DNA of 64,000 nt from Gemmatimonadales bacterium (GCA_044229245.1 JBGATI010000002.1:261302-325301), one strand, 5' to 3'; shown: positions 9,759 through 29,311, numbered from the stretch's first letter. Made by a program: numbers and translations. The notes: generated by a model from the letters alone, not told the origin.

Positions 9759-9781
9759 GACGTGTCTCGGGTAAGAGTGTA

Positions 9782-9908: not shown

Positions 9909-10092
9909 GGAAGATTGGTCAGCCTGAGAGGCCAAGCTCATGGACAATGGCCCTCGCGAAGGGAGCCAGGTCGCGGCAATACCTCTGTGCCGCTGAATGT
10001 ACGCGAACCATGTGAGTTTGCAGGTACTTCAGTGTCACCACCGGCACGAGAGCCTGATGATGCTCGTAATCCCCTGGTACCGCGGCAAGAAG

Positions 10093-10740: not shown

Positions 10741-10807
10741 TGCCGTCTAACGACTCGTCATAAGCTTCGAGTCGCAATCCATCCTGCCAAGCCGGGGCTT
10801 TGGCAGC

Positions 10808-13043: not shown

Positions 13044-13063
13044 AGGCCAGTAGGTTATAGGTA

Positions 13064-13191
13064 GGTCTGTTACCCCGAAGGTGTTTCAGGGCGACGGCCA
13101 GATCAGTCCAGTATGAGGTACGACTGCGGGCGGTACAAGCCCTACCACAAACCGATCGCGGCGCCCTGTCAACGTCGTGCGATTGTCAGCC
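13064..13191 (-). repeat. attC-like imperfect palindrome E13 (128 bp)
   Basis: In gene orientation: GGCTGACAAT-CGCACGAC-GTTGACAGGGCGCCGCGATCGG...GGCCGTCGCCCTGAAAC-ACCTTCGG-GGTAACAGACC. It begins 4 nt after the Abi_C stop and ends 20 nt before the PIN-like ATG. Confidence 0.55.
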
Positions 13192-13195
13192 AGCT

Positions 13196-14044: not shown

Positions 14045-14155
14045 AAGTTGCAGGGCCGCGGCGCGCTCACCGCGGTAGGGTATCCCAGAAAAAGTCGTGC
14101 CATTGCCTTCGCTATCCGACGGCCGCGCTCTGCCAACTTCATGCCTTTGTTAGAC
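14029..14155 (-). repeat. attC-like imperfect palindrome E14 (127 bp)
   Basis: In gene orientation: GGTCTAAC-AAAGGCATGAA-GTTGGCAGAGCGCGGCCGTCGG...CGCGCCGCGGCCCTGCAAC-TTATGCGG-GGCGTAAGCC. It overlaps both the putAbiC stop and the Abi_C start. Confidence 0.55.
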
Positions 14156-15170
14156 CGCGCTCATCCGCGCGAAGATAGGCTGGCAATGAACGATCCGTGT
14201 TCTGCCATTCGAAATAGCCAGTTGGGAACAGCTTAGCCGCGTCCAACTCAAGCAGGGAATCGAAGAAGTCTCGTGGAAGATTCTTAACAAGCTTGTACCC
14301 AAGCATGTGCCCATCAGACCACCATACGTAGCCCAATGGGGTCAAAGAGTTCAGGAGAAAGAGAGCTTGCTCGTGTGTCGAGAACTGGGCGCGAACTGTC
14401 CTAACGTATTCATACTTGTCAACAGGCACGTCGGTTTTGTGAACGAACCCGACCAGCTGATATAGATGCCGGTAATAGTGACCAAGCCGAGATTGATGCC
14501 CTTGGAAGGGAATGTAGCGACCAGGCTTGCCATGCTTTCGGAAGAACGCTGCCTCCATTTCCAAGACGCGCGATACGTGTCGAGCCAGTTTGCGCTGATG
14601 ATCATCCAAGGTTGCCTCTACAAGTCGCCCGGAGTGGGCTCCGGCGCCATAGTAGAAGAAGTAATAGCTGATCTGAATTGCGTCGAGCGGAACAATGCGA
14701 ATGTTGTTGCGCCTTGCCTCTGCATGGACAACGCGGAGAATTCTCCGCCATTCCGAGAAAAGCTTAACGAATACAACTCTCCCTAGGCGTTTGCCTACTG
14801 CAATCGTGTCCGCGTTTGAGCGGTGTAGCGCTAGCAGGGTGTTGAACCGCGTCGCAAACCCTTCTGACGAGGCTGTGCGTCTCTGAGCCCTTAGCGTGGC
14901 CACGAGGAGTACGACGCTCACTAAGCCGAAGTATGTGCCAACGTAGCCGCCAACGAACTCGCCAAAGAGCGCCGCACTATTCCGGTCCAGCGTCCACGTT
15001 TCCCTGAAGGCAGGAGGGATGAAGGCAAGGTTAATGACGAGGAGCCCGACGATGAGTATGCCTATTTCGAGCGCGAGCGAGCGCGCTTTACGAAGGGATC
15101 GTGCAAGCCACATGTCGTAGCAGACCATAGTTAGCGAAAAGTAGCGGCAAACAAGATCGGGACCTGACAC
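14139..15170 (-). CDS. putative phage abortive-infection protein (putAbiC-like), N-terminal TM helices
   Basis: Two N-terminal hydrophobic helices followed by FQGHQSRLGHYYRHLYQLVGF, remembered as the putAbiC family signature. The true start may be ATG 15128 or 15110, because GTG 15170 lies inside repeat E15. Confidence 0.6.
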   Translation of the reverse strand: MSGPDLVCRYFSLTMVCYDMWLARSLRKARSLALEIGILIVGLLVINLAFIPPAFRETWTLDRNSAALFGEFVGGYVGTYFGLVSVVLLVATLRAQRRTASSEGFATRFNTLLALHRSNADTIAVGKRLGRVVFVKLFSEWRRILRVVHAEARRNNIRIVPLDAIQISYYFFYYGAGAHSGRLVEATLDDHQRKLARHVSRVLEMEAAFFRKHGKPGRYIPFQGHQSRLGHYYRHLYQLVGFVHKTDVPVDKYEYVRTVRAQFSTHEQALFLLNSLTPLGYVWWSDGHMLGYKLVKNLPRDFFDSLLELDAAKLFPTGYFEWQNTDRSLPAYLRADERGLTKA

Positions 15171-16280: not shown

Positions 16281-16526
16281 TCAAAACACCCCCACCCTCC
16301 GCCCCTCCCTCGCCTCCGTCACCGCATACCGCCCGGCCGCCGACCGCTCGACCCGCACCCGAGGGCCCCCCACCTGTAACCCGAACCTGCCATTCGACGA
16401 GTCGGGCTGGATCAGCAGCGCCACCCCGCCCGTTCCGCTGGCGTCGAGCGTCGCATGGGCACCCGGCTCGAGGTCGAACCCCGCCGGCGTCGCCAGGATC
16501 GTGTCCCGGCCGGCGGCGGGCGTCAC
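16281..16526 (-). CDS. short high-GC ORF, possibly a remnant of a host gene at the island edge
   Basis: 81-aa GTG-initiated ORF with protein-like composition (DTILATPAGFDLEPGAHATLDASGTGGVALLIQPD...). A TGA stop lies about 50 nt upstream in frame. No family recognised. Confidence 0.25.
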   Translation of the reverse strand: MTPAAGRDTILATPAGFDLEPGAHATLDASGTGGVALLIQPDSSNGRFGLQVGGPRVRVERSAAGRYAVTEAREGRRVGVF

Positions 16527-17005
16527 CGACCCCGCGATCCGCGCCCCGGCGCCGGCGGTGGTGAGCTTGAACTGGGGGCTTTCGGCACTGTCCGGTCAGG
16601 AAGCAATCCGGTGCTGCTCCCGCAGGACCCGCGCGGAACTCCGACCGGGCCCGACCAGGGTCGCAGTCAGGAGTGCCGCGGAGAAGAGGGAGCATGGCAT
16701 CGGATCCCCCGCCTGCACCCAGCGGCTCCTGGCCATCCCCAACCTGCTAGGCAAGTCGGGACCGCGCCAGTACCGCCATTGAGCCGAGTCAGGCAGACGT
16801 CAGGAACGCCACCCGCGCCCGTCAGCTCGCTCGGCAAATTCTTCCGGCCGCGAGGCCGGATCATATATGATCGCGTCGTCCCGCGGCCTCACACTCCCGC
16901 CCCCGCTGTCACTTTCCACCCCGCACGCACGTCCTATCAGGTGTCCGACACTGTCCACGCGAGTGTCCACCGACTGTCCTCGTGGACACTTTTCGGAGAC
17001 ACTGC

Positions 17006-17420
17006 ACAAGATCGCCGAATCGATTTTCCAGCCCGCCGTTTCGATTTCCAGACCGCCGAAACAACTGTCAGATTCCTGAACAGTCCGTCCAGGCGACCGA
17101 ATCAGTTGTCGAGCCCGCCGAAACATTCTTCCAGCCTCCCGAAACGACTCTCCAGGCCCGCGAAACAGTCGTCGAGATCGGCGAAACATTTCTCCAGACA
17201 GCCGAAACGAATCTCCGGACGACCGAATAGGTTCTCCAGCCCGCCGAAATGAAGTTCTGAGAGACGAATCGAACATCCGGACAGCCGCAGTAAACGTCCC
17301 GTTCGCTGGATGAGATGTCCAGTGCGCCGCACTGGATGTCCAGCGCACTGAACTGGACGTCGAGCTCACCGAACACGACGTCCAGCGCGCCGCGCTGAAC
17401 TCCAACTCTGCCGCCTCACA
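17006..17420. repeat. tandem 21-bp repeat, about 20 units, with three 20-bp units
   Basis: Units such as ccagcctcccgaaacgactct, ccaggcccgcgaaacagtcgt and cgagatcggcgaaacatttct. On the minus strand they read as the heptad F-G-x-L-(E/D)-x-x, and the reading phase changes at each 20-bp unit. Confidence 0.8.
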
Positions 17421-17642
17421 CCCCGATCCAGTCGCCGTCAAAATTCTTGGCGATCGAAATGATTGTCGAGCCGATGGAAGCGCCCGCCTGACACCGACAT
17501 CCCGCATCTGGCACAGAACTTACCGACGGTGCCCCCCGGCCCGTGCTCGGTCGACACGGGACCGCACTTCAACAGCACAGGACTGACGCGGGGTCGAGTT
17601 CTCGACCGGACTCCGCGGCCACGCTCACGAAAGGAGCGTCGT

Positions 17643-18341
17643 ATGACGGATTACATCAGCAGAGTGTTCGACATGGTCCTCCGCGTGCTGGTCTTCCTGC
17701 ACGCGAACCCCCTCGACACGCCCGCGTTCACCGCGAACCTGGCGCTGCTCGAGGCCGGCGCCGCCAGACTGAAGGAGCTGGCCGACATGGAACGGAGCGG
17801 TCACGTCGAGGCGAGTGCCGCCGTGATCGGGAAGAAGGAGGGGAAGGCCAATATCCTCGACGGCCTGAACTTCCTCGGCCGCGTCGCCATGGTCGCCACC
17901 CGAGAAATGCCGGAGATGCCGGTGCGGCTCACGATGCCTAAGCCGAACAGCGGGGCGCAGAAGCTGATCACCGGTTCCCGGGTGGTGGTGACCCAGGCGC
18001 GGGCCCAGCAGGAGCTGCTCACCAAGTACGGGATGACGACCGGGTTCCTGGATGAGCTCACCGTCTCGATCGACCAGTACGAGAAGGCGGTGAACACCAA
18101 GTCCTCCGGCGTCAACACGCACATCGGCGCCGCCGCCGAGATGGAGTCGGTGACCCGCGAAATCACTCGGCTCGTGAAGGTGATCGATGCCGTGCTGCGT
18201 CGGCGCCTGCGGAACGACCCGCAGAAGCGCGCCGCGTGGAAGGCTGCTCGCACGATCGTTCGTCATACGCCGAAGCCGGCGGAGGATCCGGCCGAGACAC
18301 CGACGCCGCCGAAGGCAGGGAGCGAGTCGCCGGCGGCGTGA
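17643..18341 (+). CDS. hypothetical protein
   Basis: ATG preceded by AAAGGAG. 232 aa, helical-looking, with a Pro/Ala-rich tail. The start was trimmed from track ORF 17463..18341. Confidence 0.65.
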   Translation: MTDYISRVFDMVLRVLVFLHANPLDTPAFTANLALLEAGAARLKELADMERSGHVEASAAVIGKKEGKANILDGLNFLGRVAMVATREMPEMPVRLTMPKPNSGAQKLITGSRVVVTQARAQQELLTKYGMTTGFLDELTVSIDQYEKAVNTKSSGVNTHIGAAAEMESVTREITRLVKVIDAVLRRRLRNDPQKRAAWKAARTIVRHTPKPAEDPAETPTPPKAGSESPAA

Positions 18342-18345
18342 TTTT

Positions 18346-18466
18346 AGTACTTAGTGCTTAGTGCTTAGTGCTTAGTGCTTGGTCTCAGGCACTAGGCACT
18401 AGGCACTAAGCACTCATTCGCACCCGGAACCCGGAACCCGGAACCCGGAACTAAGCACTAAGCACT
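18346..18466. repeat. heptanucleotide array H1: (AGTGCTT)n hairpin plus (CCGGAAC)4 plus (TAAGCAC)2
   Basis: agtacttagtgcttagtgcttagtgcttagtgctt GGTCTC aggcactaggcactaggcactaagcact, then cccggaa x4. Lies between two convergent stop codons. Confidence 0.9.
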
Positions 18467-18801
18467 CCATAGGCCAGCACTGCCATGAGGATCCCCAGCA
18501 CGCTCACCATGATGATCGCCGGGGTTTCGCGGTACTTCACATGGACGCCGATGAAGACCAGGCTCTCGAGCGCGAGGACCGCGGCGGCCACGCCGGTCAG
18601 CACCGGCGAGAGGTGGAGGAGTGGCGGGAGAATGAAGCAGGCGACGCAGATGAGCTCGACGACGCCGAGTGCGGTCCAGGCCCGCTTCGGCAGCGCACCG
18701 AAGGAGGGAACGTCGACGCTGACCTTGTCGAACATGAACACTTTCATGATGCCGGACGCGCCGTACACGAGCGTGGCGAGACCCTGCAGGACCCAGAGCA
18801 T
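18451..18801 (-). CDS. DoxX-like family membrane protein
   Basis: 116 aa with four hydrophobic helices and a DoxX-like layout. The last codons GVLSA-TAG lie inside array H1. Confidence 0.75.
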   Translation of the reverse strand: MLWVLQGLATLVYGASGIMKVFMFDKVSVDVPSFGALPKRAWTALGVVELICVACFILPPLLHLSPVLTGVAAAVLALESLVFIGVHVKYRETPAIIMVSVLGILMAVLAYGVLSA

Positions 18802-18818
18802 ATGCGCTCCCTGTGTTG

Positions 18819-18902
18819 AGTACTCAGTACTTAGTACTCAGTACTTAGTACTTAGTGCATAGTGCTTAGTACTCGGAACTCGGAACTCGGTACTCGGAAC
18901 TA
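18819..18902. repeat. heptanucleotide array H2
   Basis: (AGTACTC/AGTACTT/AGTGCTT) x8 followed by (GGAACTC) x4. Confidence 0.9.
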
Positions 18903-19205
18903 TCAAGCTTTTCCCCGCATCTTCGCCGCCCACCAGCGGAGGCCGACGAAGAGGAAGCGCCAGTCGTGGAAGAACTCGGGCGGCTTGCCTTCTACCGCGT
19001 GGCCGATGAACTGCAGCGCCCACCCGGCCACGAACAGCCCCAGCGCCACGGGCCAGAGGCCGTGCACGAATAAGGAGAGAGCGAAAAGGACGAGGGAAAC
19101 GACGATGGTCGGGATGCCAAGGGTGTGGCAGAACCGGTTGAACGGATGCTGATGACTCAGGCCGTACTGGGCGATCCATTCATTCCACGGGCGTCCACCG
19201 AGCAT
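18903..19205 (-). CDS. DUF962 (Mpo1-like) membrane protein
   Basis: HPFNRFCHTLGIP ... FIGHAVEGKPPEFF is typical of DUF962. Start trimmed to ATG 19205, which is preceded by AGGGAG. Confidence 0.8.
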   Translation of the reverse strand: MLGGRPWNEWIAQYGLSHQHPFNRFCHTLGIPTIVVSLVLFALSLFVHGLWPVALGLFVAGWALQFIGHAVEGKPPEFFHDWRFLFVGLRWWAAKMRGKA

Positions 19206-19222
19206 AGGCGCTCCCTGTGTTG

Positions 19223-19299
19223 AGTGCTTAGTACTAAGTACTAAGTACTTAGTGCATAGTGCGCAGTACTCGGAACTCGGAACCCGGAACTCTGAACTA
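19223..19299. repeat. heptanucleotide array H3
   Basis: (AGTGCTT/AGTACTA/AGTACTT/AGTGCAT...) x7 followed by (GGAACTC/GGAACCC) x3-4. Its terminal GAACTA supplies the TAG stop of the next gene. Confidence 0.9.
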
Positions 19300-19929
19300 T
19301 TGGTCGCTCCACCGAAACGTCCGCCCGACGGCCCGCAGCCGCCCGAGCAGCGTGGTGTTCTCGCGGTCTCGGCTGTCGACCGAATACTCGATGACGGCGA
19401 TCCGTCCCCTGCTCCCCGCCACCAGCGCCTCGGAGCTGCAGCCCTCGCAGTGGAGCGCCAGGCGGAGGGCGGTGTCCGAACCAAGGAGCACCGAAGGCAA
19501 CTCGGTCGGCCGGGGATCGAAGCTGCTCGGATTCACCGGCGCATCCATCCGGAAGTGGTCGCGCATCCACTGCTTGAGGCCCAGCCGGCGCGCGTCCTGG
19601 AAGGTGGTGACCGTCACGGCGCACGGCCACGAGCACTCCGGCAGGTCGGTGACCCGGAACTTCCGGTTGGCGGGACGATCGGGGTCCCGCCAGCGGGCGT
19701 CGGCCACGGCGGGGACAGTGAGCGTGAACCCGCCGCCATCGGCGATCTGGGTCGAGTCCCACGAGCCGGGATGCGGGAGCCCGAAGCCGGGCGTGGCCTG
19801 ATGATCGGCGGGAACCATCGAGGCCATGGCGGTCTCGTCGGTCGAGTCGGCATCGGCCGACGCCGGCGGCGAATCGCCCTGGTGACAGGCCGAGAGCAGG
19901 ACGAGCAGCAGTAACGGATGGTGGCGCAT
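19297..19929 (-). CDS. lipoprotein, unknown function
   Basis: MRHHPLLLLVLLSAC lipobox; 210 aa; no family recognised. Confidence 0.6.
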   Translation of the reverse strand: MRHHPLLLLVLLSACHQGDSPPASADADSTDETAMASMVPADHQATPGFGLPHPGSWDSTQIADGGGFTLTVPAVADARWRDPDRPANRKFRVTDLPECSWPCAVTVTTFQDARRLGLKQWMRDHFRMDAPVNPSSFDPRPTELPSVLLGSDTALRLALHCEGCSSEALVAGSRGRIAVIEYSVDSRDRENTTLLGRLRAVGRTFRWSDQ

Positions 19930-20013
19930 GGGTCCCTGGGCGGGCCGACGGACGGGGATAACCTGCGGGCCGCAACGGAGGAACGCCAGTGCCCGCGGGA
20001 GCCCGCGCGGGAG

Positions 20014-20140
20014 CGCTCGGCTGAGGCCAGTAAACTGGCCCGGTCCATTCCTTAGCGTCGCTTCAGCGACATCAGCCGAGCCGTCGCTTCAGCGACGAGC
20101 TCGGACGGGGTGAGGCCGCGTTCAATCGCGGCCCCCACAT
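20014..20140 (+). repeat. multi-hairpin repeat S1
   Basis: GCTCGGCTGAGGCCAGTAAACTGGCCC..GTCGCTTCAGCGACATCAGCCGAGCCGTCGCTTCAGCGACGAGCTCGG..GGCCGCGTTCAATCGCGGCC. One of three copies. Confidence 0.85.
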
Positions 20141-20226
20141 TCGAACCTCGGAACTCGAAACCCGAAACCCGGAACCCGGAACTAAGCACCAAGTACTAAG
20201 TACTAAGTACTAAGTACTAAGTACTA
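20141..20226. repeat. heptanucleotide array H4
   Basis: (CGGAACC-type) x5-6 followed by (TAAGTAC) x6. Confidence 0.9.
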
Positions 20227-20716
20227 TCTCAAACAACGTCTCCCACGCCGATGTTCCGATCTGTTCGATCAGCGCGAGCCGAGTCAGCGTCATCGTGATC
20301 GGGGTGTTGAGCGACGCCCAGGTGGACGGCAGGTTCTCCGGTGCGCGGGGATTCCGTGGGTGGGCCAGGGTGATGTGGGGACGGTGGGCGCGGATCGTGT
20401 CGGTGCCGAGGAGTGCCACGCGGAGCCGCTGGAACTCCGGCTGGCCGGCGGTGCAGGGGAGGAGCACGCCGTGGCCGTCGAACTGCTCCGGTGCGCCGAA
20501 GGTCAGGGTGATCGGCGCGGGCCGAGCCTCGCGGCAGCGCCCCTCGAGTTCATCCACCGAGTACGCCGCCAGCTCGTCCTCGCGGCAGAGCGTGACGTGG
20601 GCGGGGATGAGCCGGTGCTGCACCGGATCGAGCCGCGTCCGGATCGCCTCGAGCGTGGCGCGGGCCGGGTCGGAGACGAAGAGGGTGAACTGGCGGCGCA
20701 GCCGAGCCTCACTCAC
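20210..20716 (-). CDS. 2H phosphoesterase superfamily (LigT / 2'-5' RNA ligase-like)
   Basis: Two H-x-T-x motifs (PAHVTL and PHITLA). The last codons IVLST-TAG lie inside array H4. Confidence 0.75.
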   Translation of the reverse strand: MSEARLRRQFTLFVSDPARATLEAIRTRLDPVQHRLIPAHVTLCREDELAAYSVDELEGRCREARPAPITLTFGAPEQFDGHGVLLPCTAGQPEFQRLRVALLGTDTIRAHRPHITLAHPRNPRAPENLPSTWASLNTPITMTLTRLALIEQIGTSAWETLFEIVLST

Positions 20717-21215
20717 GACCGGCCTCCGGTGCGTTGGGCAGGTAGCGGCGCCATTCGTCCGACTCCAGCGCGGCCTTGAGCAGCTCCGCGCGGCGGGCGA
20801 TGAAGCGTCGCATGTACGCCGTCAGGAATGTCACTTCGGCCGCGCGACCGAGCAGGCCGTACGGCGCCACGAAGCTGAAGAGATCGGTGACGACGGTCCG
20901 GTCAGCATGCTGGCGAGATGGTTTGAAGAAGTGATCGTGGTCGAAGCGCTCGAAGGCGCCGCGCACCTGGGAGTCGCGGAAATGCTCGGAGGGCGACCAC
21001 GCGGTGATCTCGCTGGTCAGCTCCTGCCAGACGCCGAGATGCCGCGCCCGCCAGGTGACCTGGTCGCCCAGTGTGAGCAGCCCGGTCCGGACGCCGCCGA
21101 CGACGGATTCTCCGGTGCCCGGGGTCGAGGCGAGGTGGAAGTCCACGCTCCGGGCAAGATCGAAGCAGCGCTCCAGCGGCGCCGCGATCTCGAGTTCTAT
21201 GCGGATGACGGGCAC
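20709..21215 (-). CDS. SRPBCC (START/polyketide-cyclase-like) domain protein
   Basis: The IELEIAAPLERCFDL... layout is typical of SRPBCC. Overlaps the downstream 2H gene by 8 nt. Confidence 0.7.
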   Translation of the reverse strand: MPVIRIELEIAAPLERCFDLARSVDFHLASTPGTGESVVGGVRTGLLTLGDQVTWRARHLGVWQELTSEITAWSPSEHFRDSQVRGAFERFDHDHFFKPSRQHADRTVVTDLFSFVAPYGLLGRAAEVTFLTAYMRRFIARRAELLKAALESDEWRRYLPNAPEAGRE

Positions 21216-21238
21216 GGGTGACTAACGCCGCGAGGAGG

Positions 21239-21487
21239 TCATCGGTTCCGCTGCCGCAGCTTCGCCAGCGTCGCCTTGAGATAGCGCCGATACCCCGCCG
21301 GGCTCATCCATCCCTTCGGCGCAGGAACTCGGCGCAGTCGCCGGGGCGCAAACTCGACGAACTGATCGCTCGACCCGGAAACTCTCCGCACCCGCACCCG
21401 CCAGCGCGCGGCGATCCGGGCCCGGATCCGGCCGATGCGGCCATCCGGGAGCCGCACGCAATCGCCAACGGCGAGCCTCGTGGTCAT
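21239..21487 (-). CDS. small basic hypothetical protein (82 aa)
   Basis: MTTRLAVGDCVRLPDGRIGRIRA.... Trimmed from track ORF 21239..21778, which otherwise runs through repeats S2 and H5. Confidence 0.4.
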   Translation of the reverse strand: MTTRLAVGDCVRLPDGRIGRIRARIAARWRVRVRRVSGSSDQFVEFAPRRLRRVPAPKGWMSPAGYRRYLKATLAKLRQRNR

Positions 21488-21532
21488 CGTCTCCCCGCGG
21501 AAGGGCGGACAGGCGGACGGGCGGACAGGCGG

Positions 21533-21675
21533 ATCGCGGCTAAAACCGCGGCTCGGCTGAGGCCAGTGAACTGGCCCTGCCATTCCCGACCGTCGCTTTA
21601 GCGACATCAGCCGAGCCGTCGCTTTAGCGACGAGCTCGGACGGCGTGAGGCCGCGATGAATCGCGGTCCCACATT
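21533..21675 (+). repeat. multi-hairpin repeat S2
   Basis: CGCGGCTAAAACCGCG, then the same core as S1 with GGCCAGTGAACTGGCC and GTCGCTTTAGCGAC x2, then CCGCGATGAATCGCGG. Confidence 0.85.
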
Positions 21676-21746
21676 CGGAACCCGGAACCCGGAACCCGGA
21701 ACCCAAAACCCGGAACTCGGAACCCGGAACCCGGAACCCGGAACTA
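21676..21746. repeat. heptanucleotide array H5
   Basis: (CGGAACC) x10 with two variant units. The terminal GGAACTA supplies the TAG stop of the upstream gene. Confidence 0.9.
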
Positions 21747-22190
21747 CCCCGGAATCTCCGCGTGCACCAATTGCGCAAGAAGGGTGAGCGACTCCTGCCA
21801 CCCGAGATAGCATCCCTCGGGCGGAATCGCCTCGGGGATCCCCTCCTGCACGATGCTGATGTCGGTGCCGACGGACACCGGTTTCAGGTCGATCGTCGTC
21901 TGCATGACGCCGGGCAGGTTGGGATCGTCGAAGCGGTCGGTGTGGCGGATCCGCTGGTTGGGCACCAGCTCCACGAACTCGCCGCCGAAGGAGTGGCCGT
22001 TGCCGGAGCTGAAGTTGGTGAAGGTCATGCGGTAGGTGCCGCCGACCCGGGGCTCGAGATGATGCACTCTGCAGGTGAAACCATGCGGCGGCAGCCACTT
22101 GGCCAGCGCGTCCGCATCGAGAAACGCACGATAGACACGCTCGGCCGGGGCGCTGAGGACTCGATGGAGCCGGACGGTACCTGTCGACAT
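21744..22190 (-). CDS. SRPBCC / AHSA1 (Aha1-like) domain protein
   Basis: RVLSAPAERVYRAFLDADALAKWLPP ... GWQESL is typical of AHSA1. Start trimmed to ATG 22190, after GAAGGAAGG. Confidence 0.8.
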   Translation of the reverse strand: MSTGTVRLHRVLSAPAERVYRAFLDADALAKWLPPHGFTCRVHHLEPRVGGTYRMTFTNFSSGNGHSFGGEFVELVPNQRIRHTDRFDDPNLPGVMQTTIDLKPVSVGTDISIVQEGIPEAIPPEGCYLGWQESLTLLAQLVHAEIPG

Positions 22191-22204
22191 GGAGGGCCTT
22201 CCTT

Positions 22205-22282
22205 CTGAACTCGGAACTCGGAACTCGGAACTATGCACTAAGTACTAAGTACTAAGTACTAAGTACTAAGTACTAAGTACTT
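22205..22282. repeat. heptanucleotide array H6
   Basis: (GGAACTC) x3-4 followed by (TAAGTAC) x7. Abuts the TAA stop of the next gene. Confidence 0.9.
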
Positions 22283-23436
22283 TATCGCTTGATCCAGCTC
22301 CCACTCTGTCGCCCGACCAGTTCAACAAGATTCCCCATCACCACTTCCATATCGACCAGATGCAGCCCGAGCGGCTCCGCCAGGTCGCCCTGGATGTCGC
22401 GGCTCGCGGGACTGCCGGGGCCGCGGTCGACCGTGATCTCGAGGTAGGTCGCAAAGGCGTTGGTGGCGCACTTCCCCTTCAGCATGCCGGCGACGCGCAC
22501 CATCGGCGTCGCGATCGGTTTGCCGCCGACGGTCCACGGCTCGGTCGGTCCCCACGGCAGCGCCGTCGCGCCGGTCGCGTCGAAGTAGCCGCTGAGCGGC
22601 GCCTCACCGCCGCCGAGTGAGGCGGGATTGGTGCAGGCGGCGACGAGGGTCGAGTCGGCCGAGCGGCCGAAGACGGAGGTCGCCGACGGCGGCGCGGTGC
22701 TCCGGAAGGCGGAATAGGTCACGATACAGCCGGTCTGGGTCGCGGCGCGGCAGAGCGGCATCCGCTTGAAGGTGCCGCCGACATCCTTGCCGCGCGGCAC
22801 CTGGATGCCGCCCGGGATGCCGATGATGTACGCGGCGACGATGCGCGACGCGACCGGCGTGCCCTCGATCTCGCGCTGGATGAGCGCGGTGAGCAGGACG
22901 CTGCCCTGCGAATGCCCGATCAGGACCACCCCGCGCCCGCCGTTGTCGTGCGACAGATAGTAGCGCCACGCGGCGCGGACATCGTCGTAGCCGGGTCCCA
23001 GGAAATCGGGCGACGTGACGCCGGCGGCGTTGAGCCGGCCCATCTCGGCGAGGGTGAGCTGCCGGTAGATCGGCGCGAAGAGCCGGCACTTCGTCCCGAA
23101 CCGCGCGAGCTGCAGCCGCACCACCGCCCGCTCGGCGTCATCCGCGACGAGATCGCTGTACGTCGTCGTGTCGGTGGACACCGTGGGATAGACGTAGAAG
23201 CAGTCGACCGGCGCCTTCGGATCGAGCGGCGCCTTCTCGACGGTGACGCCGCCGCCCGGACTCAGCACCGTGGTGGAGAGATCGACGTCGCACGCGCCGA
23301 GGTGGTCGGGGCGGCAGAGCCAGGTGGCGGGGCTGGCGTAGTCCGGCGCCGGCGGAATGGCGCCGGTCTGCGCGGAGGCACCCGTCGCCGCGATCGAGAG
23401 CGCCAGGATGATGAGGCGGGGCAGTCGGGTCTGCAT
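22282..23436 (-). CDS. secreted alpha/beta hydrolase (DUF3089-like)
   Basis: Signal peptide MQTRLPRLIILALSIAATGASA. VLIGHSQGS nucleophile elbow. Start trimmed from a 528-aa track ORF, and it overlaps the upstream stop (TGATG). Confidence 0.75.
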   Translation of the reverse strand: MQTRLPRLIILALSIAATGASAQTGAIPPAPDYASPATWLCRPDHLGACDVDLSTTVLSPGGGVTVEKAPLDPKAPVDCFYVYPTVSTDTTTYSDLVADDAERAVVRLQLARFGTKCRLFAPIYRQLTLAEMGRLNAAGVTSPDFLGPGYDDVRAAWRYYLSHDNGGRGVVLIGHSQGSVLLTALIQREIEGTPVASRIVAAYIIGIPGGIQVPRGKDVGGTFKRMPLCRAATQTGCIVTYSAFRSTAPPSATSVFGRSADSTLVAACTNPASLGGGEAPLSGYFDATGATALPWGPTEPWTVGGKPIATPMVRVAGMLKGKCATNAFATYLEITVDRGPGSPASRDIQGDLAEPLGLHLVDMEVVMGNLVELVGRQSGSWIKR

Positions 23437-23840
23437 CAGTACTTCACCTTCGCGATCTCCTCGTTCGGGGTGAAGTTGTCCCCGAAGTCCTCGATGTCCA
23501 TCAGCTTCCGGATCTCGACCACCGTCTCGCCGTTCGGCGAAAGGTTCGGCGCCCGCTTCACCCATTCGATCGCCTCGGCCAGCGACTTCACCTGGATGAT
23601 CGAGAAGCCGGCGATGACTTCCTTCGTCTCGGTGAACGGCCCATCGAGGACGGTGCGCTGGTCGCCGCTGAACTTGACCCGCGCCCCCTTCGCCGTCGGC
23701 GAGAGCCCCTCGGCCGCGAGCAGGATGCCGGCCTTCACCAGGTCCTCGTGGTACTGCTGCATCGCGGCCATCGCTTCGGCGGTCGGCGGCACCCCCGCCT
23801 CGGACTCCTGGGTGGCCTTCCCGATGATCATGAATCGCAT
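23436..23840 (-). CDS. YciI-like (DGPF) family protein
   Basis: MRFMIIGKAT... VLDGPFTETKEVIAGFSIIQVKSLAEAIEW is typical of the YciI fold. AGGAG lies before the ATG. Confidence 0.8.
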   Translation of the reverse strand: MRFMIIGKATQESEAGVPPTAEAMAAMQQYHEDLVKAGILLAAEGLSPTAKGARVKFSGDQRTVLDGPFTETKEVIAGFSIIQVKSLAEAIEWVKRAPNLSPNGETVVEIRKLMDIEDFGDNFTPNEEIAKVKY

Positions 23841-23997
23841 GCTGCTCTCCTGGCTCAGGTCCGTGCATGGCGCCGCGCCGGTCGCGGGCTCTGAGACACG
23901 ACGAACGGGACCGGGCAAAATCGACAACGACTGCGAGGGAGCCCTAAACAGTCGCAGGCCAAGAACTTAGCGCTATTCCCCCGGGAGAACAGCGATC

Positions 23998-24065
23998 AGG
24001 CACCAGGCACTAATCACCCGGAACCCGGAACCCGGAACCCGGACCCGGAACTAAGTACTCAGCAC
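23998..24065. repeat. heptanucleotide array H7
   Basis: (AGGCACC/AGGCACT) then (CGGAACC) x4-5 then TAAGTACT. Confidence 0.85.
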
Positions 24066-24632
24066 CGCGTCGAAATAGTGATTCTCCCCCTCATCCTCAT
24101 ACTCCGCCACCAGCCGAAGCCCCGCCGCCTCGAGGGCCGCGACATACCCGTCCCGCCCGAGTGAGTACGACGGCCGCCGAGTGAGCACGTCGACCCATTC
24201 CACCTGCTGCGAAGGCGCGGTGAAGAGCAGCCGGCCGCCGGGACGAAGCGCCGCGCCCAGCCGCGCAATGACCGCCGGCTGCGATTCGGCAGACAGGAGG
24301 AAGAGGAGTCCCCACGCCACGACGCCGTCGAACTGGCGCGCAAAGCAGCCGCTGGTCTCGATCGGCTCCGCCAGGGCGGGGACCCCGGGGAAGTTCTGCC
24401 GGAAGAGCTCGATCATCGCCGGTGAGGCGTCGAGGGCGTGCAGCCGGCACCCCGCCTCCACGAGCGCGCGCGAGATCGGGATCCCCGTCCCGCAGGCGAC
24501 GTCCAGCACCGCCGCGCCTGACGGAAGCCCCTCGGCCCACCGCTTCACCGTCGCGGCGCCGATCGTCGAGCCGTTCCTGCGCCGGGCGAATTCGGCGGCG
24601 ACCACGTCGTATCCGTTCGCGATATCAGCCAC
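24051..24632 (-). CDS. class I SAM-dependent methyltransferase
   Basis: Motif I VLDVACGTGIP. 193 aa. The last codons AVLST-TAG lie in array H7. Confidence 0.85.
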   Translation of the reverse strand: MADIANGYDVVAAEFARRRNGSTIGAATVKRWAEGLPSGAAVLDVACGTGIPISRALVEAGCRLHALDASPAMIELFRQNFPGVPALAEPIETSGCFARQFDGVVAWGLLFLLSAESQPAVIARLGAALRPGGRLLFTAPSQQVEWVDVLTRRPSYSLGRDGYVAALEAAGLRLVAEYEDEGENHYFDAVLST

Positions 24633-24654
24633 TCGATCCTCGGAACCCGATGGG

Positions 24655-24761
24655 CTCGCGGCTGAAGCCGCGGCTCGGCTGAGGCCAGTAAACTGGCCCT
24701 AGTCCTTGCGAATGTCGCTTTAGCGACATCAGCCGAGCCGTCGCTTCAGCGACGAGCTCGG
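24655..24761 (+). repeat. multi-hairpin repeat S3
   Basis: CGCGGCTGAAGCCGCG followed by the same core as S1 and S2. The 3' part diverges. Confidence 0.85.
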
Positions 24762-24841
24762 TGCGCAGAACTCTGCGCCCCCGCGCCTCCGCGGAGAACG
24801 ACCACAGATTGCTTCGGCCGCTTCGCGGTCTTGCAATGACT

Positions 24842-24896
24842 AGCACTCGGAACCCGGAACCCGGAACCCGGAACTAAGTACTAAGCACTAAATCAC
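24842..24896. repeat. heptanucleotide array H8
   Basis: (CGGAACC) x4 followed by TAAGTAC TAAGCAC TAAATCAC. Confidence 0.85.
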
Positions 24897-25788
24897 GGAC
24901 TTGTCTGATCGTCTCGGGCGTCGTCCGGCAACACCCCCCAATCCACGTCGCGCCCGCACCGAGCCAGTCCCGCACCAGTTCATCGAGCGGCGCCACCGTC
25001 GCCGAGCCGCGCCAGCAGTGCGCCTCGCCATCCCAGACCTCGCCCGAGTTGGGATAGACCACGATCGGCTTGCTCGTCCCCTTCCGGAGTTCGCGGATGA
25101 GGGACGCCGTCGTCTCGGGGCGCACGCAGTTGACTCCGACCGCGATCACCTGCGGCTCCTTCTCGAGCATCCGGGCGCAGTCGACCAGCGGCTCGCCGTG
25201 CGCGGTGTGGCGGTCGTCGCGCGCGGTGAAGCTCACCCAGGCGCGCGCCGCCGGGACGTCGTGCAGCACCTCGGTGAGCGCCTTGGCTTCATCGAGGGAG
25301 GGGATCGTCTCGCAGGCCAGGAAGTCGGCGCCTGCCGAGGCGAGCACTTCGAGCCGTTCGCGATGGAAGTGGCAGAGTTCGCCGATGGTGAGCCCGTAGT
25401 CGCCGCGGTACTCCGAGCCGTCGTGCAGCGTGGCGCCGTAGGGGCCGACCGACGCCGCGACCCACATCGGCCGGGAATCGGTCGCCGCGACCTCGCGCCG
25501 CGCCTCCGCCGCGAGCTCCACCGAGCGGCGGAGCAGCCGGTCGGTCCCCGCCTTGTCCAACCCTCTGGTCGCGAAACCGGCGTAGCTCGCCTGGTAGCTC
25601 GCGGTGATGGCGACATCGGCGCCTGCCGCGTAGTACGCTCGGTGCACCTGGCGTATCAGATCGGGTCGTTCCGCCAGGATCCGCGCCGACCAGAGCCCGC
25701 CGGAGAGGTCGGCGCCCGCCCGCTCCAGCTCCGTCGCCAGTCCGCCGTCCACAATCCGGAAATCCCGTGGCATTCCGTCCCCGTCCAT
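24874..25788 (-). CDS. mmuM: homocysteine S-methyltransferase
   Basis: GGLATELE, ITASYQAS, GVNC and IGGCCRTTPE motifs. The start is uncertain (ATG 25788 or 25773). The last codons LVLST-TAG lie in array H8. Confidence 0.85.
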   Translation of the reverse strand: MDGDGMPRDFRIVDGGLATELERAGADLSGGLWSARILAERPDLIRQVHRAYYAAGADVAITASYQASYAGFATRGLDKAGTDRLLRRSVELAAEARREVAATDSRPMWVAASVGPYGATLHDGSEYRGDYGLTIGELCHFHRERLEVLASAGADFLACETIPSLDEAKALTEVLHDVPAARAWVSFTARDDRHTAHGEPLVDCARMLEKEPQVIAVGVNCVRPETTASLIRELRKGTSKPIVVYPNSGEVWDGEAHCWRGSATVAPLDELVRDWLGAGATWIGGCCRTTPETIRQVRDLVLST

Positions 25789-26016
25789 ATAAAGGAAAGA
25801 CCCGACCGGCAACTTACCATCCGGCCCCGAAAGCGACCATTTCGCCCCGCCGATCCGTGAATTTGCCGCTTCACCGATGCAACACTCAAACGTCACACCC
25901 CACCCTGTGACTTGGGACACCTGCGGGGCTCGCGGCATCTGCTAGTGTGATAACCGCGTCGGCATCCGCCGACAGATCCAGATCCCACTAGAACGCCGTC
26001 TCGAGGACTCACCGTC

Positions 26017-28623
26017 ATGGCCGCCTTCCTGAGCAATCTGCGCCGGAGTGGTTCCGCGGAGGATCTCGCCGAGCTGCAGCAGCTCGTGACCCGTCTCGAA
26101 TCCCAGCGCGGCAGTCTCGAACAGCTCGTCCAGCACGCCGACCGCTCCATCGGTCAGCTGCAGCGACTCGGCACCCTCGGTGAGCGGGTGAACACCCTCG
26201 AACGCCAGCTCTCCGGGATCGAGCATCTCGCCGCCCGGCTCGGCGCGGCCGAGAGTCAGCTCGCCGGACTCGCCGGCACCCACAACCGGCTCGAGACCCA
26301 GATGGCGGAAACCGCCACCGGCATCGAGCAGGCGCGGGTGGACGTGACGCTGCTGACCGAGACCGTGGCCGCGACCGCGCGGCTGAAGGACGAACTCTCC
26401 GGCTTCCTCTCCCTCAAGGGGCCGTTCAGCCAGCTCAAGTCCGAGATGGAGGGGCTGCAGTCGCAGAACGAGGCCTTCCGCGCCGACTTCGCCCGGCTCC
26501 GCGATCAGCACGACGCCACCCTCAACAGCTACAAGACGGCGTCGGGCCGGATCGAGTCGTTCGACGGCGACTGGCAGCGGATCACCCGCACCGTCGCCGA
26601 GACCGAGAACCGCATCAGCGGGCTTGAGCAGCTCGTCGCCGACATGATGGGGGTCGCCGAATCGGTGGCGCAGACCAAGCGCCAGCTCGCCGGCGCCAAG
26701 GCGATGGCCGATCAGCTCGGCCAGAAGGTGGCGCTTCTCGAGCAGCAGCGGGACGAGGTCGATCGCGCCACCGCCAAGCTCGAGCACCTCACCGCGCTGA
26801 TGCAGCGGGTGGACCAGGGCGCCGAACGCTCCAGCGAAGCGGTGCGCACCGTCGCCGCGCTCCGCACCGAGCTCGAGTCGCTCGAAGAGGCGCAGACCGC
26901 GCTCACCGAGCGGAGCCGCTCCGTCACCGAACGGCTCGAACGGATCGAAAGCGGCCAGACCGCGGCGGAGCGGAGTCTCGTTTCGCTCCGCGAAGGGCTC
27001 GACCAGAGCACCGAGCGGCTCGCGCTCGAGAGCCGGAGCGTGGAGGGGATGGGGCAGCGGGTCGGCGACCTCCGCCGGAACCTCTCCGAGTGGGAGGCGC
27101 GCTTCGCGACCCTCGCCGCCGGCGCGGAGGCGATCACCACCGCCGCCTCGAAGGCCGACACCCTCTCGACCCAGGTCACCAGTCTTACGGGCGAACTCGC
27201 CCGCGTCGCCGAGCTCGGATCGCGGGTTCGCACCGGGCTCGCCGATCTCGAACGGCTCGAGGAGGGGATCGGCGGACTCACCGAGCGCACCTGCCGGCTG
27301 GAGGAGTCGCGCCCGCTGCTCGAGCGCACCGTCCGCGATCTCTCCGGACTCGGCGCCACCGAGGAGGCGATTCACGAGGCGCTCGAACAGCTCCGCGGCG
27401 CCCGCAAGGAGCTGAGCGACACCCGCGGCACCCTCGATCAGACCCGCACCTGGCTCGGCGAGACCGACCGGAGCGTCGCGGCGCTGAAGACCGATGTCGC
27501 CGGACTCGACCGGATGCGCGCCACGGTGGATGCGCTCCGCCAGGAGCTGGAGCAGCTCAACAGCCAGATGACCGTGGTCGAAGGGCGGCGCGGCGTGGTG
27601 GACGACGTGCAGAAGCGCCTGACGGAAGCGGCGGGGATGGGCGCCTCGATGGAGGCGCGCGCCCGCGGGCTCGCCGAGCGGCTGGAGGCGGCGGAGGATC
27701 ATCTCGGGACGCTGGTGCCGAGGCTCGATGAGGTCGGGCGCGCGGGGAACCAGCTCGTGAGTCTCGGCGCCGAGGTGCGGGAGATGGAAGAGCGGGTGCG
27801 TGCGGTGCAGGGGACGGTGAAGGGGGTCGAGCAGCGCGCGAGCGGGCTCGAGACCCTCGCCAACCGGATGCAGGAGCTCTCCCGCGAGATCGATCAGCGC
27901 CAGAATGCGCTCGCCAGGGCGACCGAGCATCTCGATCGCGCCGCGACGCTCCGGCAGGAGGCGGCGGTCGCCGCGCAGACCCTGGCCGACCGGGCGCGGG
28001 AGGTGGATGCATCGCTGGTTGCCGCGGATCAGCGGCTCACGAGCTGTGATTCGCTGTCGCGCGAGCTGGAGGCGCGGATCGGGGTGCTCAACAGTGCGCA
28101 GGAGCGGATCACCGGCTTCGAGGCAAAGCTGGCCGACTGGCGCGGGGCGGAGCAGCAGCTCGCGCAGGCGATGGAGCAGGCGGTCGCGCGGCAGGCGACG
28201 ATCGCCTCGCTGCAGAGCGAGATCCGGGCACTCTTCGATCTGGCGGAACGCACCCAGGACGATGCCCGCGCGGTGACGGCGGCGCAGCCGCAGATGGCCC
28301 GCGCCCGGAGCGAGCTCGACGCGCTCCTCGCGCGGCTCGGCGACACCGACGGCATCATGCAGACACTGGAGGATCGCCGCCGCCAGCTCGACCGCACCGA
28401 GGAGCGGCTGGCCCACGCCGACCTGCTCGCCACCGATGTGCGGGAGTCGCTCGAGACCCTGGTCGCCCAGAAGGCGCAGGTGGATCACTTCCTCGGCATG
28501 GCGAGCGCGCTCACCCTGGAGACCAAGCGGGTCGAGGGGCTGCTCGAGGCGCTCCGTGACGAGCGCCGCCTCTCCGACCGGGTGCAGTCGTCGCTGGCCG
28601 GATTGCGGCGGCAACCCGAATAA
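26017..28623 (+). CDS. 868-aa all-coiled-coil protein
   Basis: Continuous Leu/Glu/Ala/Arg/Gln heptad-like sequence with high GC3. No enzymatic motif (no Walker A) was seen. Confidence 0.75.
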   Translation: MAAFLSNLRRSGSAEDLAELQQLVTRLESQRGSLEQLVQHADRSIGQLQRLGTLGERVNTLERQLSGIEHLAARLGAAESQLAGLAGTHNRLETQMAETATGIEQARVDVTLLTETVAATARLKDELSGFLSLKGPFSQLKSEMEGLQSQNEAFRADFARLRDQHDATLNSYKTASGRIESFDGDWQRITRTVAETENRISGLEQLVADMMGVAESVAQTKRQLAGAKAMADQLGQKVALLEQQRDEVDRATAKLEHLTALMQRVDQGAERSSEAVRTVAALRTELESLEEAQTALTERSRSVTERLERIESGQTAAERSLVSLREGLDQSTERLALESRSVEGMGQRVGDLRRNLSEWEARFATLAAGAEAITTAASKADTLSTQVTSLTGELARVAELGSRVRTGLADLERLEEGIGGLTERTCRLEESRPLLERTVRDLSGLGATEEAIHEALEQLRGARKELSDTRGTLDQTRTWLGETDRSVAALKTDVAGLDRMRATVDALRQELEQLNSQMTVVEGRRGVVDDVQKRLTEAAGMGASMEARARGLAERLEAAEDHLGTLVPRLDEVGRAGNQLVSLGAEVREMEERVRAVQGTVKGVEQRASGLETLANRMQELSREIDQRQNALARATEHLDRAATLRQEAAVAAQTLADRAREVDASLVAADQRLTSCDSLSRELEARIGVLNSAQERITGFEAKLADWRGAEQQLAQAMEQAVARQATIASLQSEIRALFDLAERTQDDARAVTAAQPQMARARSELDALLARLGDTDGIMQTLEDRRRQLDRTEERLAHADLLATDVRESLETLVAQKAQVDHFLGMASALTLETKRVEGLLEALRDERRLSDRVQSSLAGLRRQPE

Positions 28624-28683
28624 CCCGCGGGCCGCACCACTCAGTAGCCCGCGGCCTCCGTGCCGCGGGCTATCTTTGTTCCC

Positions 28684-29187
28684 ATGACCTCCGAACAACT
28701 CCGCGCCCTCCAGGCGCCACTCAAGCAGCGCTACCGTACCGATCCCGCCTCCGCGCTCGTCACCTCCGTCGTCGTCGCGACCCTCGATCAGGGCCGGATC
28801 GCCTGCCACGTCGAGGCGCCGAACGCCGGTGCCGACGTCGGGCTCCATCCCGCAGCCGGCGGCAGCGGGGCTCAGCGCTGCTCCGCCGACATCCTGCTCG
28901 AGGCGCTCGCCGGCTGCGCCGGCGTCACCCTGCTCGCCGTCGCCACCGCGATGGGGATCACGGTGCGGAGCGGCACGATCAGGGCCGAGGGGGACTGGGA
29001 CGCGCGCGGCACGCTGGGGGTGAGCAAGGAGGTTCCGGTCGGACTCCTCGCGGTAAGGCTCACCGTCACCCTCGACAGCACTGCGACGGAGGAGCAACTC
29101 GCCAAGCTGCTCGATCTAACCGAACGGTATTGTGTTGTAGCTCGGACGCTGTCCGAAGGTGTCGGTGTTTCAGTGCTTAGTGCTTAG
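28684..29187 (+). CDS. OsmC family peroxiredoxin-like protein
   Basis: LLEALAGCAGVTL and LTERYCVV give the two conserved Cys contexts of OsmC. The last codons VLSA-TAG lie in array H9. Confidence 0.8.
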   Translation: MTSEQLRALQAPLKQRYRTDPASALVTSVVVATLDQGRIACHVEAPNAGADVGLHPAAGGSGAQRCSADILLEALAGCAGVTLLAVATAMGITVRSGTIRAEGDWDARGTLGVSKEVPVGLLAVRLTVTLDSTATEEQLAKLLDLTERYCVVARTLSEGVGVSVLSA

Positions 29188-29296
29188 TGCTTAGTGCGTG
29201 ATCGCCAAGGCTCGTACCGAGCACTAAGTACTAAGTACTAAGTACTAAGTACTAAGTACTAAGTACTTAGTACTCAGTACCAAGCACTCGGAACTA
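29172..29296. repeat. heptanucleotide array H9 (long hairpin)
   Basis: (AGTGCTT) x3-4, a 23-nt loop, then (AAGTACT) x8, ending in ..CGGAACTA. Confidence 0.9.
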
Positions 29297-29311
29297 TCGA
29301 CCAACCTCCCC

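Follow-up and report, generated by a model that had tools for sequence, protein, structure and literature searches.

Genes and arrays at the locus

The subject of this analysis is a set of tandem heptamer arrays in a 64,000-nucleotide stretch of DNA from a Gemmatimonadales bacterium (GCA_044229245.1, JBGATI010000002.1:261302-325301), hereafter the window, with positions counted from its first nucleotide. The window has a G+C content of 67%. According to Tandem Repeats Finder and a lag-7 scan, period-7 arrays are confined within it to positions 18344-29290, where runs of three or more head-to-tail copies with a period of exactly 7 occur, as is characteristic of heptanucleotide simple sequence repeats (SSRs). 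Open reading frames (ORFs) were annotated between 17.4 and 31.6 kb, and gene identities were obtained from Pfam. The genes and arrays are presented in Table 1.

Two unit families make up the arrays. Unit B, AGTRCTT (reverse complement ACTAAGT or ACTAAGC), contains TAG when read on one strand and TAA when read on the opposite one, and its AGTACT core is palindromic. Unit A, TTCCGRG, is free of stop codons in every frame and in both orientations. In the sense of the upstream gene, the layout is almost invariably the gene, then (AGTRCTT)n AG, then (TTCCGRG)n, and the arrays occupy the spacers from the stop codon to approximately 19 nt ahead of the next start codon. The arrays are heptanucleotide SSRs of two unit families, situated, within a variable gene cluster, in the 3' untranslated regions (3'-UTRs) and the spacers between cistrons.

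Table 1. Genes and heptamer arrays of the cluster, with positions in the window.
Feature	Position	Strand	Remarks
292-aa gene, convergent to DoxX	TGA 18339-18341	plus	
Inverted pair (TTAGTRC)5 + (AGGCACT)4	18344-18414	plus	Between convergent 292-aa gene and DoxX; long hairpin predicted
A array (TTCCGGG), 4 units, gene-sense strand	18420-18451	minus	Directly after DoxX TAG
B array (AGTGCTT), 2.3 units	18451-18466	minus	Wholly within DoxX 3' end; encodes V-L-S-A + TAG (18451-18453)
DoxX_2	18451-18801	minus	Pfam
A + B arrays	18817-18902	minus	From Mpo1-like stop (TGA 18903-18905, then TAG 18900-18902) to ~19 nt before DoxX start
Mpo1-like	18903-19205	minus	Pfam
A + B arrays	19227-19299	minus	After 210-aa gene; TAG 19297-19299 at A-array junction
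210-aa protein	19297-19929	minus	
B array (AGTACTT, ~5 units), then A array	20144-20226	minus	Last 15 nt of 2H gene (20210-20224, V-L-S-T-TAG) inside B
2H/LigT phosphoesterase	20210-20716	minus	Pfam
A array, ~10 units	21673-21746	minus	Directly after AHSA1-family TAG; preceding ATT CCG GGG holds one A unit
Two SRPBCC/AHSA1 proteins, DUF3089, YCII	AHSA1 TAG 21744-21746; DUF3089 TAA 22282-22284	minus	Pfam
B array (AGTACTT, 6.4 units), then A array	22204-22284	minus	0 nt after DUF3089 TAA
~2 imperfect B units (GTGCTGA GTACTTA G), then A array	24016-24065	minus	Encode methyltransferase V-L-S-T-TAG, stop 24051-24053
Class-I methyltransferase	24051-24632	minus	Pfam
2.3 B units (TTAGTGC TTAGTAC TTAG), then 4-unit A array	24845-24891	minus	Encode MmuM L-V-L-S-T-TAG, stop 24874-24876
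Homocysteine S-methyltransferase MmuM	24874-25788	minus	Pfam
868-aa coiled-coil protein		plus	
OsmC	28660-29187	plus	Pfam
B array (AGTGCTT, 3.7 units), 22-nt loop, inverted (ACTAAGT) 9 units	29170-29290	plus	Encodes OsmC V-L-S-A-TAG (stop 29185-29187); long hairpin predicted

Gene ends within the arrays

An earlier note on this DNA had claimed that five unrelated genes stop within the repeat, with a V-L-S-T/A tail followed by TAG. All five tails are confirmed in the DNA, and the identities of the five genes are backed by Pfam: DoxX ends GGA GTG CTT AGT GCT TAG (...YGVLSA), the 2H/LigT phosphoesterase ATA GTA CTT AGT ACT TAG (...EIVLST), the methyltransferase GCG GTG CTG AGT ACT TAG (...DAVLST), MmuM TTA GTG CTT AGT ACT TAG (...DLVLST), and OsmC TCA GTG CTT AGT GCT TAG (...VSVLSA). 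The codons GT(A/G) CTT AGT (A/G)CT TAG, which the note had assigned to every case, hold for four of these genes, but the methyltransferase has CTG as its Leu codon instead of CTT.

The remaining genes named in that note also end as described. Those at 19297 and 21744 stop at a junction with the array (CAA-TAG-TTCAGAG and GGG-TAG-TTCCGGG, respectively), and that at 22282 stops 0 nt from it (CGA-TAA-AGTACTT). Two cases can be added: the Mpo1-like gene at 18903 ends TGA-TAG-TTCCGAG, and the TGA of the 292-aa gene lies 2-3 nt ahead of an array. Given that these small co-oriented genes each have a repeat at the stop, an integron cassette array was considered. It was rejected, as GTTCCGG/CCGGAAC mismatch the attC cores RYYYAAC...GTTRRRY and no tyrosine recombinase is present among the annotated ORFs.

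The shared tail as a product of the unit

Because unit B has a single TAG and 7 is coprime to 3, both the stop and the codons that precede it are fixed. Every frame meets the in-frame TAG within 21 nt, an ORF that enters an array stops within six codons, and the codons ahead of that TAG are always TAC TTA GTA CTT AGT ACT (i.e., Y-L-V-L-S-T). An ORF that extends 12 nt or more into (AGTRCTT)n is bound to end in VLS(T/A) and a stop. The overlap between array and ORF is 12-18 nt in the five genes, and the distance d is never below -21 among AGTRCTT-type arrays. The arrays thus show the stop in all three frames, the limit on ORF overlap and the fixed peptide that characterize stop-bearing heptamers.

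Since the sequence of the unit forces this ending, the five matching tails are not independent evidence, but one fact. The shared VLS(T/A) tail is a by-product of the repeat and not a functional tag. That unrelated proteins carry a common repeat-encoded tail is correct, yet the sharing is an arithmetic consequence of the unit and gives no sign of a functional peptide.

C-termini of array-free relatives

The proteins were compared with those of a sister species, approximately 88% identical and represented by the metagenome-assembled genome (MAG) JBGASX, for which two syntenic pieces were available: L079, covering the OsmC-GluQRS region, and L120, extending from YCII through DoxX. Further relatives were taken from ENA, JGI, NCBI and Logan contigs, and for MmuM, 2H and DoxX the tails were counted among 120 homologues per family. 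Species that are 80-92% identical carry arrays at these gene ends too. An assembly artefact was ruled out, given that the arrays recur at orthologous sites in these independent assemblies.

Nearly all of the 120 DoxX homologues have 123 residues and end AYGR[LM]VLxPIx, whereas the proteins of the window and of L120 have 116 and end AYG-VLSA. A 75% identical, array-free homologue (L122) keeps the native end, and a VLS[TA] ending is present in one of the 120, from the array-bearing clade. The MmuM family ends in IRxVRxxVD plus a variable tail of 3-40 residues. Four of its 120 homologues end in VLS[TA]; these are the closest four, all in the clade of at least 81% identity, and arrays are present in each one whose DNA was read (L118, L119 and L204). 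A 77% identical MmuM homologue (L205) has a long native tail and no array, and an 82% identical one (L123) ends ELVVGA, with a two-unit fossil, TTAGTGG TTGGCGC CTAG. Among the more distant orthologues, arrays with mutated units also give the tails DLVLSA and EMVLSA.

For the 2H phosphoesterase, the only one of 120 homologues that shares IVLST is the 92% identical, array-bearing orthologue in L120. A 79% identical orthologue ends FEVGLRPGV-TAG, made of degenerate B units and followed by four copies of TTCCGGG; other homologues end W.V....L plus 2-6 residues. A metagenome scan for OsmC returned no further array-bearing orthologues, only 36 relatives of 55-64% identity, which end ...QTLRxPPxVSVxRxx without arrays. 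OsmC ends GVRVEVG-TGA in the relative L117, and VSV-LSA in the window and in L079. After the motif NHYY[DE], the methyltransferase ends AVLST in the window, AVSSA in L119 and CERVPGA in L121 (both with an array), and AVLSG-TGA in L117, which has no B array at this site.

The array-free homologues of DoxX, MmuM, 2H and OsmC end differently, and usually with a longer C-terminus, which bears out the proposal that the repeats replaced native C-termini. The comparison shows that the arrays overwrote the last 3-8 native codons. The alignment also limits the replaced portion: the leading Val often agrees with residues native to array-free orthologues, and for DoxX and the methyltransferase this agreement extends to Val-Leu. 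The part truly replaced is thus often just L-S-T/A. The boundary between array and native sequence is blurred, and microhomology or tolerance of similar residues may be the cause.

It could also be supposed that VLS(T/A) is ancestral and that the arrays grew from a duplicated native 3' end. The earlier note had taken VLST or VLSA in repeat-free orthologues as the finding that would speak for this, and such endings were largely not seen, the nearest case being the methyltransferase of L117, whose AVLSG lacks a B array and has TCG, not AGT, as its Ser codon. The native ends ...R[LM]VL... of the DoxX family and ..VSV.. of the OsmC family are in keeping with an ancestral tail, as is the same SVLSA in L079 with approximately 1.7 units. 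Against it, five unrelated families cannot all share one native ending, the few homologues with VLS[TA] (four for MmuM, one for 2H and one for DoxX) all belong to the array-bearing clade, and the same unit is found at intergenic places without coding history. The homologue comparison largely refutes this explanation, which we consider very unlikely.

The tails drift where the units mutate, giving VLSA, VVGA, VSSA, RVPGA and GLRPGV, and hence the VLS(T/A) peptide is not conserved as such. This drift, with MGE as a further example, bears on the idea that selection maintains V-L-S-T/A as a C-terminal signal (for instance for degradation or sorting) that the cell adds to accessory proteins through the repeat. 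Such a signal would agree with the presence of the tail on five unrelated proteins, with its retention in the sister species despite changes in copy number, and with the coincidence of Val, and sometimes Leu, with residues conserved in array-free homologues. Yet the tail follows automatically from the unit sequence, the Mpo1-like, DUF3089 and 210-aa genes have the same arrays and receive no tail, and in other genomes the opposite array orientation yields VLSTKY instead. A selected signal is therefore extremely unlikely.

In L117, a syntenic sister genome, a different array takes the place of the B and A arrays at the MmuM stop (positions 10894-11010 of that stretch), namely (GGGGAGA/GGGAAGA)n; the stop lies in GGAGTGA, which departs from the unit by one base, and the protein ends RVMGE. 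Other gene ends of L117 bear GGCGGGA-like arrays and a different repeat of approximately 60 nt, GTCATTCCGAGCGCAGCGAGGAATCTCTCAGGG....

Array length and the position of the stop

Orthologous arrays differ by whole units (i.e., multiples of 7 nt), as heptanucleotide SSRs do. At OsmC, L079 is shorter by exactly 14 and 42 nt, with approximately 1.7 B units against 3.7 in the window; the SVLSA tail is the same, and the stop at the same codon is TGA instead of TAG. The 2H array has 5 units in the window and 12 in L120, with IVLST kept, and the DoxX array 2.3 and 3.3 units, again with the same tail. The A array after AHSA1 has approximately 10 units in the window and approximately 6 in the orthologue, and the orthologue of the 210-aa gene in L120 ends SDR-TAG followed by four copies of TTCCGAG. 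Within the population, one strain has a 14-nt (two-unit) deletion at 19280, the sole clear variant recovered, as Logan contigs break at the arrays.

The earlier note had asked whether expansion or contraction of an array would shift the stop. The natural variants keep tail and stop, and in a simulation added units never shift the stop; only with fewer than approximately two B units is the stop-free A array exposed, which adds from 9 to approximately 40 residues. DoxX, MmuM and the methyltransferase hold just this minimum, approximately 2.3 B units. A phase-variable contingency locus was rejected on these results.

Anchoring at stop codons and unit orientation

The position of the arrays was assessed over 19 Gemmatimonadales-type loci plus the window, which together provide 56 coding-like ORF ends that have an array block no more than 300 nt away. 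In 31 of the 56 this block begins no later than the last base of the stop codon, and in 45 it begins within 9 nt. Moreover, all five genes that end at a B/A junction (DoxX, methyltransferase, MmuM, 210-aa and AHSA1) have its TAG in frame, where one third would be expected for each. The position of the arrays, unlike the identity of the tail, exceeds chance. TAG accounts for 7 of 12 stops in the array region against 13 of 34 outside it, a difference that is not convincing.

A arrays begin T-AG-TTCCGRG or T-GAG-TTCCGRG, which places the final bases of the stop codon in register with the unit. Beside stop codons, the A unit is in the sense orientation 22 times and never antisense, for genes on both strands; these counts come from loci L024, L025, L067, L106, L111 and L120 and the window, and include some orthologous pairs, leaving approximately 15 independent cases. 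The orientation of B units beside stops shows a weak bias (38:24). The safety of stop codons cannot explain the orientation of the stop-free A unit, and its sense-only placement points to something strand-specific at the transcript level. In L106, a reverse-oriented (CTCGGAA)n array finishes 2 nt ahead of a start codon.

These results agree with the notion of arrays targeted precisely to stop codons as a positional rule, with arrays starting at the stop and in register, and not as a mechanism of insertion.

Distribution beyond the locus

An exact search for (TAAGTAC)3 in species-representative genomes returned at least 116 stretches (L001-L116). The matches listed span about ten phyla, and were found in Pseudomonadota, Actinomycetota, Bacteroidota, Planctomycetota, Acidobacteriota, Gemmatimonadota, Desulfobacterota, Patescibacteria and Calditrichota, as well as in a Clostridia MAG. 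The arrays usually lie beside other heptamer arrays, such as TAAGCAC, TGAGAAC, TAAGTTC, GATACGT, ATGTCTA, AAAACCC and CTGCCAA. In the other phyla, among the matches listed and with arrays within 300 nt, the stop lies inside or touches the array at 61 of 215 ORF ends, and within 10 nt of it at 107. The stop codon there is often TGA followed by GTACTTAGTAC, or TAA followed by GTACTAAGTAC, so that it forms the first unit, either exactly or with one base changed.

In these loci, more than 400 nt from the seed arrays, 45 perfect arrays of at least three units have period 7, against at most 10 for each other period from 4 to 12. The unit recurs at no fewer than nine loci of MAG JBGASX, so that recurrence is observed together with over-representation of period 7. 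In metagenome runs, words from the arrays reach 20-45 times the depth of the flanking genes, which indicates many such arrays in the genome or the community.

The genes between the arrays vary among relatives. Comparing positions 18451-23843 with L120 and L117, L120 has DUF1963 where the window has an 83-aa ORF, and in L117 the methyltransferase and Mpo1 are separated by a single FAD-binding gene and DoxX is absent. Because gene content between array-flanked units differs in this way, the arrays flank a cassette-like variable region.

RNA structure

At the RNA level, both units are self-complementary: AGUACU is a perfect palindrome and UCCGGG self-pairs using G-U. Where inverted array pairs lie between convergent or adjacent genes, long hairpins are predicted. 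The inverted pair at 18340-18470 has a minimum free energy of -68.1 kcal/mol, with z-scores of -9.7 on the plus strand and -7.0 on the minus strand, and that at 29165-29311 one of -66.5 kcal/mol, with a z-score of -9.6. A search of Rfam 15 over 17.8-29.7 kb at E<=1 returned only sub-threshold look-alikes of miRNA hairpins at the two inverted array pairs, and a promoter scan gave nothing at the arrays. An intrinsic (Rho-independent) terminator was rejected as a candidate for want of a G+C-rich hairpin with a U-tract at the arrays; the terminator scan matched only 28644-28673, behind the coiled-coil gene, and, weakly, 21709-21728 in an A array, which is fewer matches than in shuffled sequences.

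We tentatively suggest that the self-complementary units could serve as a hairpin at the 3' end of mRNAs or between cistrons, after the stop codon, acting as a stabiliser or terminator in the manner of repetitive extragenic palindromic (REP) elements, a role to which we would give somewhat less than even chances. A largely neutral SSR bounded by selection is possible.

A structured repeat of approximately 130 nt follows the A array at 20016-20161, 21535-21695 and 24657-24766, and is also found in L025, L106, L117 and L120. Its hairpins are GTCGCTNNAGCGAC (twice), GGCCGCGATTNANCGCGGCC and GGCCAGTNNACTGGCC, and it has no match in Rfam.

Origin of the arrays

Taken together, the heptamer SSR arrays probably grew in place up to the gene ends, with the tail an incidental outcome. 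The lengthening and shortening of arrays by whole units fits replication slippage, which would be the mechanism of growth, and arrays would extend over time until selection on the protein halts them. A arrays would reach no further than the stop codon, with which the unit is in register. As B arrays bring their own stop in every frame, they could run a few codons into the gene, overwriting its dispensable last 3-8 residues, after which the first in-frame TAG would give (L)VLS(T/A). Growth in place is favoured over targeted insertion because orthologous sites differ by exact whole units.

Several observations weigh against this reading. Slippage alone leaves the same units at many loci of one genome and in about ten phyla unexplained, and selection on stop codons does not account for the sense-only orientation of unit A, neither orientation of which contains a stop. 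Spacer modules are duplicated including their non-repeat parts, such as CTCAACACAGGGAGCGCMTATG upstream of DoxX and Mpo1, a hint that modules were copied and that growth was not purely local. Compared with shuffled sequences, single arrays show only a modest gain in folding (z from -1 to -3.5), and the terminator scan found no canonical hairpin with a U-tract at them. In the one RNA run, 10% of the words are present and the contigs cover no array.

Regarding the duplicated spacers, one and the same 19-nt leader, CTCAACACAGGGAGCGCMT, precedes the ATG of DoxX (18802-18820, minus strand) and that of the Mpo1-like gene (19206-19224, minus strand), and the two spacers are alike over their whole length. 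This likeness suggests that a spacer module including the ribosome-binding site may have been copied between the two genes.

The same spacers lend some weight to the view of the B+A block as a small non-autonomous mobile module, akin to miniature inverted-repeat transposable elements (MITEs) or REPs, that inserts site-specifically at or beside stop codons, with TAG or TA as a conceivable target, and supplies a TAG of its own. Besides the non-repeat sequence and ribosome-binding site that two spacers have in common, many unrelated genes of several genomes are followed by an identical junction of TAG and TTCCGRG, the approximately 130-nt structured repeat follows A arrays at three sites of the window and also in L025 and L106, array-flanked genes differ among relatives (no DoxX in L117, DUF1963 in L120 alone), and the depth of array words, 20-45 times that of the flanks, implies many copies. 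However, neither terminal inverted repeats nor target-site duplications can be seen flanking the blocks, the stop codons that arrays adjoin in register with the unit include TGA and TAA besides TAG, and orthologous sites differ by exact units rather than by presence or absence of a whole block. No transposase, integrase or reverse transcriptase was found among the annotated ORFs. We thus regard a mobile module as unlikely. An element derived specifically from a MITE or an insertion sequence was rejected: block lengths vary in 7-nt steps, and no terminal inverted repeats or target-site duplications were seen at the junctions by eye, no dedicated search having been made.

A broader proposal is that period-7 arrays are made or maintained at gene ends by a dedicated, widespread and strand-aware process, and act as six-frame translation insulators or as 3'-end RNA elements. 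This would explain TAAGTAC on stops in about ten phyla, the 22:0 orientation of unit A and the different heptamer at the MmuM stop of L117. We consider such a process quite improbable.

The arrays have consequences for annotation and are instructive for evolution. The last 3-5 residues of the affected proteins are repeat sequence, not family sequence, and C-terminal comparisons as well as start and stop calls should allow for that. A dispensable gene end can be overwritten harmlessly by a repeat that carries a stop in each frame, and a stop-free repeat halts exactly at the stop codon; the edge of the array would therefore mark where selection on the protein begins.

Genomic surroundings

A low-GC (54-60%) defence island lies at 6233-15170 of the window, directly upstream of the array-rich cluster. 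It includes a patatin phospholipase together with a CD-NTase with SMODS and AGS-C domains, a pair resembling the cyclic-oligonucleotide-based antiphage signalling system (CBASS), and also carries a PIN_12 protein, an Abi_C protein and a putAbiC protein. Just upstream of the arrays, imperfect tandem repeats with periods of 20-21 and 63 occupy 17009-17392, inside overlapping ORFs (16455-17507), and probably represent a repetitive stretch of protein-coding sequence. Pfam gave no match for 16455-17252. The source organism was seen in bioreactor, activated-sludge and wastewater metagenomes (window 18250-22350; runs X1, X4, X6 and X9).

Comparison with known systems

The REP elements of enterobacteria and the bacterial interspersed mosaic elements (BIMEs) are repeated, hairpin-forming elements found in 3'-UTRs and between cistrons. 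REPs are imperfect palindromes of 20-40 nt mobilised by RAYT transposases, and those within approximately 15 nt of a stop codon have been reported to affect translation termination and mRNA decay. The arrays resemble them as repeated hairpin-forming elements in 3'-UTRs and between cistrons, yet REPs and BIMEs are not tandem 7-mers. With phase-variable contingency loci, the arrays have in common a slippage-prone SSR that overlaps coding sequence; here, in contrast, a change in copy number leaves the frame outcome as it is, since the first in-frame TAG lies at the proximal end.

The closest stop-bearing counterpart is the TAACTGA repeat described in marine Beggiatoaceae, cyanobacteria and some Bacteroidetes (MacGregor 2015, PMC4679880). 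In its forward orientation it has stops in three frames, limits ORF overlap to at most 18 nt and forces the tail LITDN-, and 13 BOGUAY ORFs stop inside the repeats, with the repeat-encoded residues at the protein periphery; in Beggiatoaceae it occurs in 2-6 copies, mostly a few nt upstream of start codons (PMC4679880). Both systems are intergenic tandems of period 7 with a stop in every frame, overlapping ORF ends and a forced peptide. They differ in the unit, and the arrays described here are anchored at stop codons, combine two unit families of which the stop-free one is oriented, and occur in high-GC Gemmatimonadota.

The G-rich heptamers GGGAATC and GGGGA(C/T)T of Xanthomonas and Nostoc lie between co-directional ORFs, with a strong bias to adjoin or overlap the stop codon (Rehm et al. 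2015, PMC4692102). Related species differ in array length at a given locus, and inverted pairs lie between convergent genes; the units form G-quadruplexes and carry no stop codon, and no shared protein tail is described (PMC4692102). Both are heptameric intergenic SSRs at stop codons, variable in length and with inverted pairs between convergent genes, but the G-rich units are stop-free and form G-quadruplexes. The (GGGGAGA)n array at the MmuM stop of L117 is a comparable G-rich array.

Heptanucleotides are an over-represented class of long SSRs in prokaryotes, mostly intergenic, according to Mrazek et al. 2007 as cited in PMC4692102 and PMC4679880, and the same two papers cite the cyanobacterial short tandemly repeated repetitive (STRR) sequences of Mazel et al. 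1990 and a proposal of polymerase slippage for heptanucleotide SSRs. The dominance of period 7 is reproduced in the loci studied here; neither stop-codon anchoring nor this unit pair is described in those surveys, as far as they are represented in the citing papers. Our literature search found no paper giving a mechanism for heptamer arrays. Why heptamers dominate bacterial SSRs has been a question since 2007, to which the orientation of unit A and stop anchoring in about ten phyla offer testable handles. Heptamers overlapping stop codons have already been reported, for TAACTGA and GGGAATC, and the arrays presented here are of the same kind, with a new unit pair in a new phylum, a clear two-part architecture and a strict orientation rule.

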